Shown: positions 14,828-60,168 of the stretch, piece by piece
How the letters are laid out: each line of letters starts with the position of its first letter
Numbering within the stretch: the first letter of the stretch is position 1
NCBI GenBank assembly: GCA_964016885.1
Contig: OZ024749.1
Coordinates: 45,570,001 to 45,634,000, forward strand
From: Eledone cirrhosa
Taxonomy: Eukaryota
Direction: 5' to 3'
Length of the DNA: 64,000 nucleotides
Translations under genes and position numbers: made by a program
The notes under the pieces: model-generated
Told to the model about the DNA's origin: nothing
Seen by the model: the letters and a program-made list of their open reading frames with translations, nothing else
The model's database searches: none

Positions 14828-14908
14828 TAGGAACCAGTAAGACCCCGACAGCTGAGCTCAAGCCGTTTCGACGGCTAATTCTGGTTCCTTACCACATTTC
14901 CTTCGTTA
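14828..14908. mobile_element. (TA)n-embedded short element, family C (internally inverted copy)
   Basis: Inverted 5' part joined at TCTGG to the constant terminus TTCCTTACCACATTTCCTTCGTTA. Confidence 0.85.
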
Positions 14909-15196
14909 TATATATATATATATATATATATATATATATTTATATATATATATATATATATATATATATATATATATATATATATATATATATATATATA
15001 TATATATATATATATATATATATATATATATATGTATATATATATATATATATATATATATATATATATATATATATATATATATATATATATATATATA
15101 TATATATATATATATATATATATATATATATATATATATATATATATATATATATATATATATATATATATATATATATATATAAATATATATATA
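14907..15196. repeat. (TA)n microsatellite, ~290 bp (one of dozens in the window)
   Basis: Directly visible; other long TA-rich tracts at 3850-4145, 20224-20425, 25300-25442, 44587-44982, 54405-54730, 57506-57845, 62402-62670. Confidence 0.98.
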
Positions 15197-15417
15197 AGAA
15201 AGTGAATGAAATATAGCCATACACAGATACGTGTGCATTAAGATAAAGCAAAACTTAAACTAGAGACAATCCTTTACATTGAATGTAATAATAATAAAAA
15301 TAATAATAATAATAATAATAATAATAATAATATATATATATATATATATATCCAGACGGAACATGAATCGTTAAGATCTCATTCCTGCGTATGTCACTAA
15401 TTATAAAACAAACTTTG

Positions 15418-15477
15418 TATTTTATCTGATGAGAGCGTACCAAATTTTGGTACCCGTGAAATATATATAATAGAATA
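15418..15477 (+). ncRNA. Minimal type-I hammerhead ribozyme (canonical core)
   Basis: Stem I TATTTTAT(15418-25)/ATAGAATA(15470-77); core CTGATGA 15426-32; stem II GTACCAA-att-TTGGTAC with partly decayed base; GAAA 15458-61; palindromic stem III ATATATAT; predicted cleavage after A15469; AATAAA overlaps the 3' arm; lies in an island between (TA)n tracts. Confidence 0.8.
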
Positions 15478-15646
15478 AATGTGGTTTTATAAATATAGTT
15501 TCCATTTATTAATACCCTTGATATTATACTCCAGTAAACTTGTCGAGTGCTTCGAATCTGTTATAAATATATTTGTTGAATTACCAACAAATTAAATATC
15601 CCATTGTTTATATATATATATATATATATATATATATATATATATA

Positions 15647-16163
15647 GTGGTAGAACACTGGAAGTTAATATCCGTAGTGGGACGATTTAGGTAGAAGTGG
15701 TTACAAAACAGTTAGTTCACCATACCGAGAACAATTGTTTCACCTTAGCGGATCCTCAGCTCGTAATGGACAATCCGGAGCTTTGTAGTTATGTAAGAAA
15801 CGAATACATATTCTAAAGAGATTACGCAATAGTGCTTGCCTAAACACGAGGATTGAATTCTTCACACGTTGTCCACACGTCTGGAAACACTTCTTACATA
15901 ACTACAAAGCTCCGGATTGAATTACAACAACATCCTAATGTTCTTATCAACGAGAAACTTTCGGACTTTCGCAGTTATATCCCTCACACCTCTCGCGCGC
16001 AATTTACCTGTGAATTAACCTGTGTGAAGTGATCGTTTCTGCACTTGCGCGTTAGTACGATTGTCCTTCATGTTCCGTATAACCATGTCCATTACGAGTA
16101 TAACCGTCACAAAGGTGAAATAATTGTTTTCGGTATGATGAACTAACTGTTGTGTAACCACTT
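15647..16163. mobile_element. Penelope-like pLTR-type remnant with nested inverted repeats, inserted in (TA)n
   Basis: Outer inverted repeat ~15695-15772 vs ~16086-16163 (hammerhead core intact on the left, replaced on the right); inner perfect 29-bp inverted repeat 15771-15799 vs 15891-15919; (TA)n on both sides. Confidence 0.6.
15720..15769 (-). ncRNA. Minimal type-I hammerhead ribozyme (canonical core)
   Basis: Minus strand reads CCATTACGAG-CTGAGGA-tCCgctaaGGt-GAAA-CAATTG-TT-CTCGGTATGG: stem I of 8 bp with a 2x2 internal loop, short stem II, palindromic stem III ACAATTGT. Confidence 0.75.
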
Positions 16164-55889: not shown

Positions 55890-56090
55890 TTCAACTCGAA
55901 TCAATATCTATGTCAAATCTACAACATATTTGGTTATACTCCTAGATCGGGTGCATAAAATGGTTAACATTCATACGATACGTGAAATATTCCAAATAGT
56001 TGTTTTTAGTGCAAGAAGCTTACCTCGTCACTCCTAAAGTGAGATTTAAGTGGGTTCCTGTTCACGATGGGCTGTATGATATCAAATGTC
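55890..56090 (+). pseudogene. Decayed RNase H domain of a retrotransposon
   Basis: Peptides RINIYVKSTTYL...IREIFQ then, after a frameshift, PKVRFKWVPVHDG, resembling RNase H 'I-Y-x-D-S' and 'W-V-P-x-H-x-G' motifs; catalytic residues lost. Confidence 0.4.
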
Positions 56091-56781
56091 CAGCTTTCAT
56101 GATATCAGAAAGTCCAGACCATTTATTCACACTAAATATTCTCATTTGTATTTATTATAACAGTCATGTTTTAACAATATATATCCATAAAGGCGAAAAA
56201 AATTGGCGTGTGCATGAATAAACAGTAAAGCCAGTCCCTACTGCTCATCACCAAATGAATTCATAACGTAAGATTTGCAAAACATTCTACTGATTTTTAA
56301 ATTGCCTTCATGACAATTAATACTAATATCACCACACCATTGTATTGAAATGATATTAACTATAACAAACAATCATAATACAAATAATGATTTATGTCGT
56401 AGCAATCATTATGACAACAATTAGCACTATAAAACCTATTATAATTGCGTACATAAAAAATATCACATAAATGTAAAAAAAAAACATCTGATTGTGAAAA
56501 GTTTGTTTGGCTGACGATTGCTTCACACTTTCAAAAAACTTAAGAAATAGCAGCCCAATTATTAAATACTAATAAATACCTGATGCGATACCACGTTATC
56601 TTTCTTTCATATACAGGTAATGATTGGTGTGTTTAGTTATGCATACACACACACACACACACATATGCACGCACACACACGCGCGCGCACACACACACAC
56701 ACACACACGCGCACACGCGCACACACACACACACACACACACACACACACACACACACACACACATATATATATATACATA

Positions 56782-57003
56782 TAACGAAGGAAATGTGGTA
56801 AGGAACCAGGTGGACCATAACGCACCAAAGTACTCAATACTTAGGGTAGTAGAGTGGGTAATAGGAACCAGTAAGACCCCGATGGCTGAGCTCAAGCCGT
56901 TTCGACGGTTAATTCTGGACTAAAAAAAAAAAAAAAAAAAAAAAAAAAAAAATTAGCCGTCGAAACGTCTTGAGCTCAGCCGTCGGGGTCTTACTGGTTC
57001 CTA
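56782..57003 (-). mobile_element. Family C with A31 tract and 53-bp inverted duplication
   Basis: Reverse copy 56782-56921, A31 at 56922-56952, inverted arm 56951-57003 matching 56862-56914. Confidence 0.9.
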
Positions 57004-59978
57004 TATATATATATATATATATATATATATATATATATATATATATATATATATATATATATATATATATATATATATATATAGTGTTTGTTCTGTTTAC
57101 ATGTCATTCTACTGACATGGCTTAAAAAGGGGATATTTGCGTAATTGCAAACGACTCGAATATTATTATCAATATTCGAAAAACTCTACATTTATATATA
57201 TAAAATCCGGTGTAGAAAAAGTAGTATTCCATATCTATGACTTTCATCTTTTTCACTTAAAAGTTGGCAACACTGCACTCTCTATATATTTTATGGAATG
57301 ATTCAGGATGACAGCATTTTGTGAATTTCCGACTGCCAATGCAACCGTTGCACATTGTTCGCATTGACATGTTTATCTTACTTATTCTATTTTACATAAT
57401 TCTTTTTTTCTATTTTAATTCAAGAAAAAAAAAAAAACTTTTCATTTTTCAGTTCCAGTCATTTAATATAATCAAAGGCCACCCACATGCAATACACTTG
57501 TAAAAATATATGTATATATATATATATATATATATATATATATATATATATATATATATGTATATATATATATATATATATATATATATATATATATATA
57601 TATATTTATATATATATATTTATATATATATATATATATATATATATATATATATATATATATATATATATGTATATATGTATATAAGTATATATATATA
57701 TATGTATATATATGTATATATATATATATATATATATATATATACATATATATATATATGTATATATATATGTATATATGTATATATGTGTATATATATA
57801 TGTATATATGTATATATGTATATAAGTATATATATATATATATATTTGATTATGTGTCTGTTTTCTGGCAAATATTTAAATAACACATTCATACAGATTG
57901 TCGCTGACTCAGTCAAGGAGATGTATGAATGTATGAATATGTGTATGTGTGAATGCACTTTACGAAAAAGGAAATGACACGTGCATCTATCATATCATGT
58001 TAGTATTGATTGACATTGTTCTCTTCCGAATGTCTGTGAACTACTATTTGTGTGTGCATTATGATTGTTTGCTGCAAAAATTAAGTTGATAATACCTGAA
58101 TAGTGTCTGCGCACGTCGTCATTGCAAATATATATGTATATATTTATACATATATATATATATATATATATATATATATACGTACACTCACACATATACA
58201 TACATATATATATATATATATATATATATATATATATATATATATATATATATATATATATATGTGTGTGTGTGTGTGTGTGTGTGTGTGTGTGTGTGTA
58301 TATGTGTGTATGTGTGTGTGTCTCTGTGTGTGTCTGTGGGCTTTGTCACTTTTTGAATCATAATTTCCACATTGACCTATAGAAGAAATATTTAAGGTAC
58401 CCTGTAATCGGAGTACCTATATTGGATAGGTAGTGATCAACTTACCCTCCAGAGTTTATATTCATTTTCTCACCCTAAATTGCTCTATTTATATAAGAAC
58501 CTGACACTAATAGTATAATTATTATTACATTCTCGAATAATTATACATAGATGGTATCGTGCTGATTTTAACTCCACTGAGAAGATTAAATAATTTGAAT
58601 GAACTAAATATTTTGCAAATTAAATCCTGGTTTGATAGAATCATAATGAAATATCATACACAGTGCATATGTGGTCAGACGAATTGATTATATATTTGCG
58701 TTGTGGTTATTTTTTATCAAAGTCAATTACCCGTTGTTTGATACATAACAAGAAACGTGGATTCCTAATGAACTAATAACAGAAGAAACACTGAAGTGAT
58801 ATACTTGTATAAAACGATTTCAGGTAACCAAATGAAGGGCAAATGAATTAGGAAAGAGCAATTGTCATAATTTCGTCTATCAATATATAGTAGCCCTTAT
58901 AATTTCTCAATATATTAATTGCATTCAGTTTCTGGTTATCGATAAACCCAGTGACTAAATTAGTTACAAATAACCAATTATGGCCTCTTTGTGCTTAGAG
59001 ACTTACACAGCTGTGTCATGTTGTTCCACTTATAAAATACGAGAGCAATGTATATATGTATATATATATATATATATAAATATATATAAATATATATATA
59101 AATATATATATATATATATATATATATATATATACATATACTAATAAAAAGTAACGAAGAGGTGTCAAATTGTCATTAAGTTTATTCAGGTGTGATGCGT
59201 GTTTCACGATTAATCTGCTGCTGGATCGATATCTATCGAACGGTGCCGAGTCTGTATTCAAATGTTCATCAGACTTTTTTTTTGCTCCATCTCGCTCTCT
59301 CTTTCTGCATGTCTATCTTCTCTCTCTCTCTCTCTCTCTCTCTCTCTCTCTCACTCTCTCTCTCTCCATCTATCTCTCTCCCTCTCTTGTCTCACCCTCT
59401 CTCCTTCTCTCTCCCCTTACACACACACACATATATATATATTTATATATATAATTATAACCATAGATTAAACAAAATATATCTCAATCATATTATACCA
59501 TAAATAAGCTTTATAAAGTCTAAAATCTGTATTATTTATTCAAATTTATGTTTCGATACAATAATACAGCATTGAGAACTTACTGAGCAAAATTATCTTT
59601 CAGAGAAAAACTCTACAATGTTCACTTATACTTTGATTCAGGGGGTCTGGTTTATAAGCTGTAGCTCAAATAACAACAGGTACGAAGCTGAACAATTATC
59701 ATGGGCTTTGGAGCTGCAAAATCTTCATCAATAGTCAGCAGATATATTCCTTCTATTACAGAATTCGTGTCATATTGAAATAAAGTGGGAGGCTCACTCC
59801 TTCATTATAGCATGTTTTTAATCTGGGGCCCAAAACAGCAATATCAACCCGGCTACATTATGGGTGGTGTATATATACATGCATATATATATATATATAT
59901 ATATATATATATATATATATATATATATATATATATATACATATATATATATATATATATATATATATATATATATAT

Positions 59979-60168
59979 TCGAAAAAGTTTAACCCTGTCG
60001 GCAGAGCTCACTAGTAGTCAATACTATAAGTCCAGAAATTGCCGTCAAAACGGCTTGAGCTCTGCCGTCGGGGTTAAACTTGTTCATATTACCCACTCTA
60101 CTACCCTAAGTATTGAGTACTCTGGTGGGTTATGTTTCATCTGGTTCCTTACCACACTTCCTTCGTTA
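59979..60168 (+). mobile_element. Family C, longest copy, with 30-bp 5' inverted repeat
   Basis: 59981-60010 is the imperfect reverse complement of 60056-60085; ends CTTCGTTA(TA)n. Confidence 0.9.

Follow-up and report, generated by a model that had tools for sequence, protein, structure and literature searches.

Insertions of Penelope-like elements (PLEs) often bear an adjacent, inverted and 5'-truncated copy and an optional tail of 30-40 nt, and the Hydra, Naiad and Neptune types prefer (TA)n or microsatellites, as described in sections of PMC8557442. According to portions of PMC11167929, both strands of an AT-rich DNA are cleaved and extended by a purified PLE protein; synthesis starts at two internal positions of the RNA, one on either side of the tail, and ribozyme cleavage is not needed. 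PLE hammerheads typically have a palindromic stem III and low activity, and the intron of Drosophila virilis Penelope ends at helix I (sections of PMC4209133 and PMC6765202); the Penelope promoter sits in the pseudo-LTR (LTR, long terminal repeat), as stated in part of PMC2377424. Here, a dispersed repeat lying next to (TA)n runs was analysed in a 64-kb window of Eledone cirrhosa DNA (assembly GCA_964016885.1, contig OZ024749.1, positions 45,570,001 to 45,634,000); the window is the whole stretch analysed, and all coordinates refer to it. It has a G+C content of 30%, is rich in microsatellites and looks like non-coding animal DNA. On the evidence below, we lean towards reading the repeats as short products of reverse transcription that derive from the terminal module (pseudo-LTR and tail) of a PLE which targets (TA)n and has a coding parent, their hammerhead-shaped motif being probably inactive.

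The repeat forms seven loci in the window, built from a 140-nt unit (Table 1). All were located by within-window BLAST where an earlier reading made from the sequence alone (hereafter the sequence-only reading) had placed them; inter-copy E-values went down to 1e-56, and no eighth locus was obtained. The loci span 56-220 bp, and the 140-190 bp given in that reading was thus not borne out. The unit is numbered on the reference copy, position 1 being 56921 and position 140 being 56782 (minus strand). This reference unit was covered by 23,334 reads of run X20 (12,467,656 reads) and 17,669 contigs of run X1 (16,285,364 contigs), and by just 3 and 2 contigs of runs X4 and X5, which come from other organisms. 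Among the 22 runs listed in the sequencing-run search, 16 contained part of the stretch and 6, from four organisms, contained at least half of 12 search words; no RNA run was among those listed as containing the repeat. Together with the flanks described below, these results showed that the repeat family is real, very abundant in one sequenced organism and tied to (TA)n.

Six of the seven loci share one end point, as had been claimed. This main terminus reads CCTTCGTTA at 14908, 26699, 34632, 56782 (minus strand) and 60168, reads CTTTGTTA at 47276, and is absent from the locus at 45578. A second fixed 3' terminus is located 79 nt upstream of the main one, at unit 61, likewise on (TA)n. Arms end there at 14827 and 57004, and near it (unit 57) at 59979, all of them on (TA)n; in the reads, (AT)n loose ends begin exactly at this terminus in 3,257 X20 reads and 78 X1 contigs, and at a neighbouring position in 417 reads. 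The second terminus had been overlooked in the sequence-only reading, as had the fold-back arms and the clustered 5' ends. The TA-repeat flanks which that reading described were found at the left end of all seven loci (marginally at 45578), but at the right end of only four, two more showing degenerate TA. Under a strict rule (end at most 6 nt from at least four TA units, which a random position passes with p = 0.18), a second repeat family used as control passed at 1 of 10 loci. The TA enrichment of the flanks also holds beyond the window, the X20 depth in the TA-like flank being about 93% of that at the main terminus. An internal direct repeat (CTGGTTCCT...TTACC) was observed on the minus strand at 56795-56809 and 56853-56870, one occurrence lying at the second terminus and the other 13 nt short of the main one, and is a candidate protein recognition motif.

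Five of the seven loci are head-to-head fold-backs, with 5' ends inner and 3' ends outer. Of their five inverted arms, four end on (TA)n and three at or near the second terminus. The two arms overlap at 56782, where unit 8-61 is present twice, and at 59979, where unit 28-57 is present twice. The same part of the unit was therefore copied twice at these loci, in two copying rounds, in keeping with the PLE reading. All nine joints listed from the reads (each backed by 1-4 read starts or 1-2 contigs) connected opposite strands, none being tandem, and eight had one side at 56911-56921. The 5' ends of six arms fell at unit 1, 1, 1, 4, 8 and 9, that is within 9 nt, and that of the seventh at unit 83. 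Given the six arms that stop together, this end is not freely variable, in contrast to the variable truncation or inversion assigned to it in the sequence-only reading. The variant at 47136 starts at a place matching these clustered ends.

The three copies reaching unit position 1 run on into unrelated sequence. In the reads, loose ends behind 56924 were A/T-rich and agreed at 0.43-0.59 among those listed (361 further ones lay outside the listing), which gives no clear common extension. Their first 10 or so letters were alike in runs X1, X20 and X4, consisting of A/T runs, so that the copies may share upstream sequence which differences in run length have blurred. Read depth past 56924 is uninformative because the reference copy has poly(A) there. 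A pile-up of 6,828 X20 read ends at 56914 was considered as a 5' boundary and rejected: these ends coincide with the end of an AATT site, the library is of the RAD (restriction-site-associated DNA) type, its enzyme being presumed, and reads passing 56914 were enriched for a variant destroying AATT (1,387/1,831 and 1,157/1,506). The pile-up is probably a restriction cut and was thus discarded as boundary evidence. Many reads also show, at 56920-56926, a T-rich run plus AG before the unit on the sense strand, in the manner of a 3' splice site where helix I begins; a correspondence with the Drosophila Penelope intron, as described in part of PMC4209133, is speculative.

The fixed 3' ends on (TA)n fit target-primed reverse transcription into (TA)n, as the sequence-only reading had supposed. 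In the proposed scheme, a PLE reverse transcriptase with a GIY-YIG endonuclease would cut (TA)n on both strands, and each cut end would prime cDNA at one of two internal RNA sites, unit 140 or unit 61, the RNA being copied uncut. Synthesis would halt at the upstream edge of the module, either at the RNA 5' end or by slippage off a U-rich run. Such slippage would be in keeping with the A-rich loose ends and with the A29 at 56922. The two cDNAs would then be joined by microhomology or filler to give fold-back copies, whereas one-sided priming would give the single-arm ones.

Immediately upstream of the single-arm copy at 26570, a 24-nt unit made up of TTTTCCAAT and a TA run occurs three times in tandem at 26501-26570; these copies could stem from repeated template jumps at insertion or be short pieces of the second subfamily's second terminus. 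At the locus 45578, which has no main terminus, TTGCAA flanks the forward fragment on both sides (45594-45634), and the insertion is aberrant.

The module near the 5' end of the unit has the shape of part of a hammerhead ribozyme. On the terminus-sense strand, the majority read letters give GAAA, a 5-pair stem plus an A-U pair, a GAGCTC-bearing loop and GTC, corresponding to the 3' half of a type I hammerhead. The remark in the sequence-only reading that CGAAAC recalls such a half is in keeping with this layout (GAAAC, palindromic stem III, GTC). The combination of GAAA, stem III and an NUH triplet was present in the majority letters and in the arms 14828, 26570 and 47136; in copy 26570, the stem III region is a complete 18-nt self-complementary stretch, and the reference copy, with its putative cut between 56881 and 56880, has two private changes. 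CTGANGA is absent from every locus, neither an exact match nor one with a single mismatch occurring upstream of GAAA, in agreement with what had been stated. In its place stands CAGAAT, which retains C3, G5 and A6 and loses U4, G8 and A9, and may be a relic of CTGANGA. The form at this position is CAGAAT(T/A/G), stem I has at most 2-3 pairs, and stem II is absent in the main type. The spacer from CAGAAT to GAAA is 7 nt in the main type and 12 nt in 47136; both values fall inside the 7-17 range of the hammerhead core descriptor given in the relevant section of PMC8557442 and thus fit a hammerhead layout.

The variant module at 47136 shares with the main one three ordered exact blocks, CAGAAT, TCGAAAC and AGCTGTC, an arrangement found in 0 of 20,000 shuffles and 0 of 12,458 window segments. 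This test was chosen after a lenient alignment of the two modules had proved non-significant (6,303 of 20,000 shuffles), and without the third block 81 of 20,000 shuffles matched. GAAAC...GTC and a palindromic AGCT loop are kept in both types, stem III of 47136 being much shorter. In the reads, the linker of the second subfamily was mostly joined to the ordinary module (2,436 X20 reads, agreement 0.57), and therefore 47136 is a minority type.

The inverted repeat AGCCGT-CGAA-ACGGCT reported in the sequence-only reading is present; as a hairpin, it and stem III compete for the same strand. The hairpin drew no support from covariation or folding: none of 6 pairs showed a two-sided change in an alignment of 6 rows, of which row 47136 was out of register, and the unit folded no better than shuffled sequences (z-scores from +0.95 to -1.19 over 7 folds, not significant). 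The similar fold proposed for 47136 stands in so far as a 4-pair hairpin with a GAA loop can be drawn by eye, but what this copy has in common with the main type is the three blocks in hammerhead layout. An active non-canonical ribozyme, which had also been suggested, is unlikely, as the first strand of the core has changes at half of its fixed bases, and X20 depth across the GTC site was flat (10,787, 10,758 and 10,625), so copies do not begin at the cut site. The CAGAAT core and the lack of a pile-up at that site together suggest that the module is probably inactive. None of the Rfam matches at the two loci tested (15 and 1) was a ribozyme, and the best 150 of 451 window matches were all below the gathering threshold and driven by simple repeats. 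A relaxed descriptor of our own for a hepatitis delta virus (HDV)-like double pseudoknot (P1-P2-P3-P1.1-P4) gave 0 matches with a pyrimidine-rich L3 on 14/14 locus strands, nor was there an Rfam match.

In its architecture, the repeat appears to work like the insertion unit of an endonuclease-bearing (EN+) PLE. Both have a fixed 3' end, a second start site with an optional tail between the two termini (here unit 61 and 140), an adjacent inverted 5'-truncated arm, an AT-rich target and copying without ribozyme cleavage. They differ in that the repeat shows no open reading frame (ORF), no partial tandem of the pseudo-LTR kind in the seven short loci or the nine listed joints, 5' ends that are clustered rather than scattered, and a degenerate hammerhead core. 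We infer PLE membership from these likenesses, because neither a reverse transcriptase nor a full-length parent was found. EN+ PLEs encode a telomerase-like reverse transcriptase and a GIY-YIG endonuclease within one ORF, and Hydra proteins are marked by RWK and DKT motifs and a CxCX5C linker. Among the PLEs, the Hydra clade is probably near and provides the nearest lead. It shares the (TA)n target and a hammerhead position near the 3' end: the module lies 99 nt from the end here, against about 30-105 nt in six published Hydra consensus ends (by eye). A tail motif of the GAG(C/T)A(C/G)T type was seen by eye in 4/6 new consensus tails, T-rich sequence precedes the ribozyme in many entries, and the tail of a coral Hydra element shares a 6-mer and an 11/12 match with that of the repeat (rough chance 0.0015, post hoc). 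However, Hydra elements carry a canonical CTGANGA, a stem II of 3-7 bp and a loop III of 1-3 nt, where the repeat has CAGAAT, a collapsed stem II and a loop of 5-7 nt. As a canonical type I hammerhead near the 3' end was found at none of the loci, the repeat was not filed under Hydra. Naiad and Neptune PLEs likewise show a (TA)n or microsatellite bias and fold-back insertions, and some Naiad elements have partial hammerhead cores according to a section of PMC8557442; a motif search of the Naiad consensus file gave no match to the repeat. The non-LTR retrozymes of 10.64898/2026.07.22.740005 are also short and non-coding, with a type I hammerhead layout and a proposed PLE origin. According to sections of that work, they are tandem units with complete ribozymes, whereas copies of the repeat are dispersed, fold back and lack the core; having no tandem units, it is not a retrozyme as defined there.

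No Pfam match at the curated cut-off was obtained for any of 141 filtered stop-to-stop frames of at least 55 aa in the window, in line with the missing ORF of the sequence-only reading. An ATG 37 nt before the main terminus (56782-56818, minus strand) opens a 12-codon frame in 5/5 copies checked, which could be the start of a parent ORF. Of the 29 read variants put through a test for coding, 8, 9 and 13 were silent in the three sense frames, with no clear signal. The repeat was not described in the literature found by topic or motif search, Repbase, Dfam and the Zenodo octopus repeat library being outside that search, and it may already be catalogued; an octopus repeat annotation counts 31 recently active PLE families, as stated in part of PMC13282606. 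The repeat likely belongs, as a variant, to an already known kind of element and does not represent a new class.

Several observations weigh against a PLE with a coding parent. No reverse transcriptase or endonuclease linked to the repeat was found in the window searches, and five exact-pattern scans of metagenome contigs, viral contigs and prokaryote genomes gave no related locus, as expected for an animal repeat. The 12-codon frame is unlike the starts of Hydra proteins (by eye), and the published octopus Hydra and Naiad consensus ends, compared by eye and with two short motifs only, gave no match. The 79 nt between the termini are twice the PLE tail of 30-40 nt. Canonical hammerheads are reported in part of PMC8557442 as universal in Hydra and other PLEs with a C-terminal endonuclease. 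The half formed by GAAA, stem and triplet is weak alone (43 and 70 of 5,000 shuffles; 39 cases listed in the window), and just 2/7 arms pass the corresponding filter; CAGAAT keeps 3/6 fixed core bases, which is not significant alone, and stem III has no two-sided change in the 6-row alignment.

These points leave room for a different kind of unit, which we regard as doubtful though worth keeping in view: a self-standing, non-autonomous, PLE-dependent unit of about 140 nt, resembling a short interspersed element (SINE), with its own transcription start, a borrowed PLE enzyme and a decayed ribozyme, and with no coding parent sharing its terminus. Both of its ends would be fixed, with two priming sites and a hammerhead scaffold outliving the catalytic strand, and it would have reached very high copy in the TA microsatellites of several related species. 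The clustering of the 5' ends, with unrelated sequence beyond them in the three copies that extend to unit position 1, the low agreement of the loose ends behind 56924, a core that is degenerate in all types seen, and several subfamilies with identical boundaries all speak for it, and non-autonomous PLE derivatives have been proposed in a section of 10.64898/2026.07.22.740005. The likeness of the first loose letters in three runs makes a shared upstream sequence possible, however; no promoter motif was seen, and the Penelope downstream element described in part of PMC2377424 was absent by eye from its expected place. The non-autonomy claimed in the sequence-only reading agrees with the lack of a coding parent in the searches made but is unproven, an A/T-rich upstream continuation being compatible with the loose ends. 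That the CAGAAT module of such a self-standing unit retains cleavage activity, be it in dimeric form or aided by a partner strand, is highly improbable. Hardly more credible is a retrozyme-like RNA whose hammerhead, non-canonical or completed in trans, is active and which is circularised and then retroposed. The stem III region is nearly fully self-complementary, with a stable predicted duplex (-26 and -33 kcal/mol), and three blocks are common to both module types; against this, no tandem copies occur in the window or among the nine listed joints, the unit ends off GTC without a depth step there, and the C3-G8 pair and A9 are missing, with stem II collapsed in the main type. Such core changes usually cripple hammerhead activity, according to a portion of PMC3088659.

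Twin priming on one RNA, established for the long interspersed element (LINE) L1, yields arms that do not overlap and whose internal sites vary. If an ordinary LINE targeting TA-rich repeats had moved a SINE or truncated 3' end in this manner, with the hammerhead likeness arising by chance, this would account for the fixed 3' end, for copy 14828 with its non-overlapping arms and microhomology joint, and for the weakness of the hammerhead half alone. We consider it unlikely, given the overlapping arms at two loci, a second start site that is fixed, and the absence of a tRNA head and of a poly(A) or other tail besides the target repeat. The tRNA head had already been denied in the sequence-only reading, and ARAGORN, which finds intact genes only, detected no tRNA gene in the window and no tRNA-like head of a tRNA-derived SINE; no A or B box was seen by eye. 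The opposite strand of the reference copy has a 16-nt hairpin 9 nt before CTAA, and a hairpin shortly before CTAA resembles a Helitron 3' end. Helitrons and miniature inverted-repeat transposable elements (MITEs) are recognised by a 5' TC with a 3' CTRR and by matching terminal inverted repeats, respectively, and neither kind of end was found. A non-autonomous rolling-circle or cut-and-paste DNA element on that strand, with a TTCG hairpin terminator about 10 nt before CTAA, or a fold-back MITE, is accordingly very improbable: a 5' TC is missing, CTAA is replaced by CTTA and CTTT in the other two copies that extend to this end, single-arm and two-arm copies with differing arm lengths coexist, and the outer arm ends are two different sequences rather than a repeat pair.

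Table 1. Parts of the repeat loci and of a second dispersed family in the window.
Feature	Position	Strand	Basis
Inverted arm (unit 4-61); outer end is the second terminus on (TA)n	14827..14884	-	alignment
Forward arm (unit 113-140) with main 3' terminus; 4-5-nt microhomology to inverted arm	14881..14908	+	sequence, alignment
Single-arm copy (unit 9-140)	26569..26699	+	alignment
Short 5'-truncated copy (unit 83-140)	34575..34632	+	alignment
Inverted module fragment (aligned part 45578-45593 = unit 29-44), without main terminus	45574..45593	-	BLAST, alignment
Forward fragment (unit 1-22)	45606..45627	+	alignment
12-nt inverted arm, outer end on (TA)n	47136..47147	-	alignment
Variant module: CAGAAT, 12-nt spacer after seventh base, GAAAC, short palindromic loop, GTC	47148..47181	+	three-block test (post hoc); lenient alignment not significant
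3' part of second subfamily (~85% identical), terminus CTTTGTTA	47182..47276	+	BLAST, alignment; same end type in 1,238 X20 reads
Reference 140-nt unit; main 3' terminus 56782 on TA repeat	56782..56921	-	BLAST, alignment, read depth
Hammerhead-shaped module (putative hammerhead relic): CAGAAT, 7-nt spacer, GAAA, stem III with palindromic GAGCTC loop, GTC-type triplet	56881..56917	-	sequence, majority read letters
A29 junction joining two head-to-head arms	56922..56950		sequence
Other arm of the fold-back, inverted (unit 8-61); stops at the second terminus, on (TA)n; overlooked in the sequence-only reading	56951..57004	+	BLAST, alignment, reads
Inverted arm (aligned part 59981-60010 = unit 28-57), outer end on (TA)n	59979..60010	-	alignment
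18-nt junction filler	60011..60028		alignment
Complete 140-nt unit, diverged: 88% identical to reference; GAAA -> AAAA	60029..60168	+	BLAST, alignment
Second dispersed family	7003-7117, 7293-7489, 9851-9978, 10405-10627, 31386-31525		BLAST
Second dispersed family	36930-37131, 46014-46087, 46556-46625, 49181-49397, 63456-63642		BLAST

The window also contains other repeats. The members of the second dispersed family are about 200 bp long and 70-95% identical by BLAST, and are not tied to TA runs. This family presumably resembles a CORE-type SINE, a label that is unconfirmed, a text search for the motif having given no result. A 305-bp tandem duplication (97%) at 10901-11512 is followed by a 37-bp minisatellite at 11513-11653, and dispersed repeats form inverted pairs at 15415-15514 and 17999-18103 (83%) and at 38653-38812 and 50330-50492 (74%).

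The origin of inverted PLE insertions is stated as an open question in parts of PMC8557442 and PMC11167929. The repeat offers short copies by the thousand, along with two fixed priming sites and a stop that is fixed upstream, and so lends itself as a natural data set for testing the priming on two strands and at two sites that has been observed in vitro. Were a coding parent to exist, the copies would be common PLE debris that carries an unusual ribozyme relic and serves chiefly for annotating repeats. If none exists, the repeat would be a non-autonomous passenger of PLEs, dispersed and distinct from the tandem retrozymes, and would indicate that a hammerhead scaffold can outlive catalysis.

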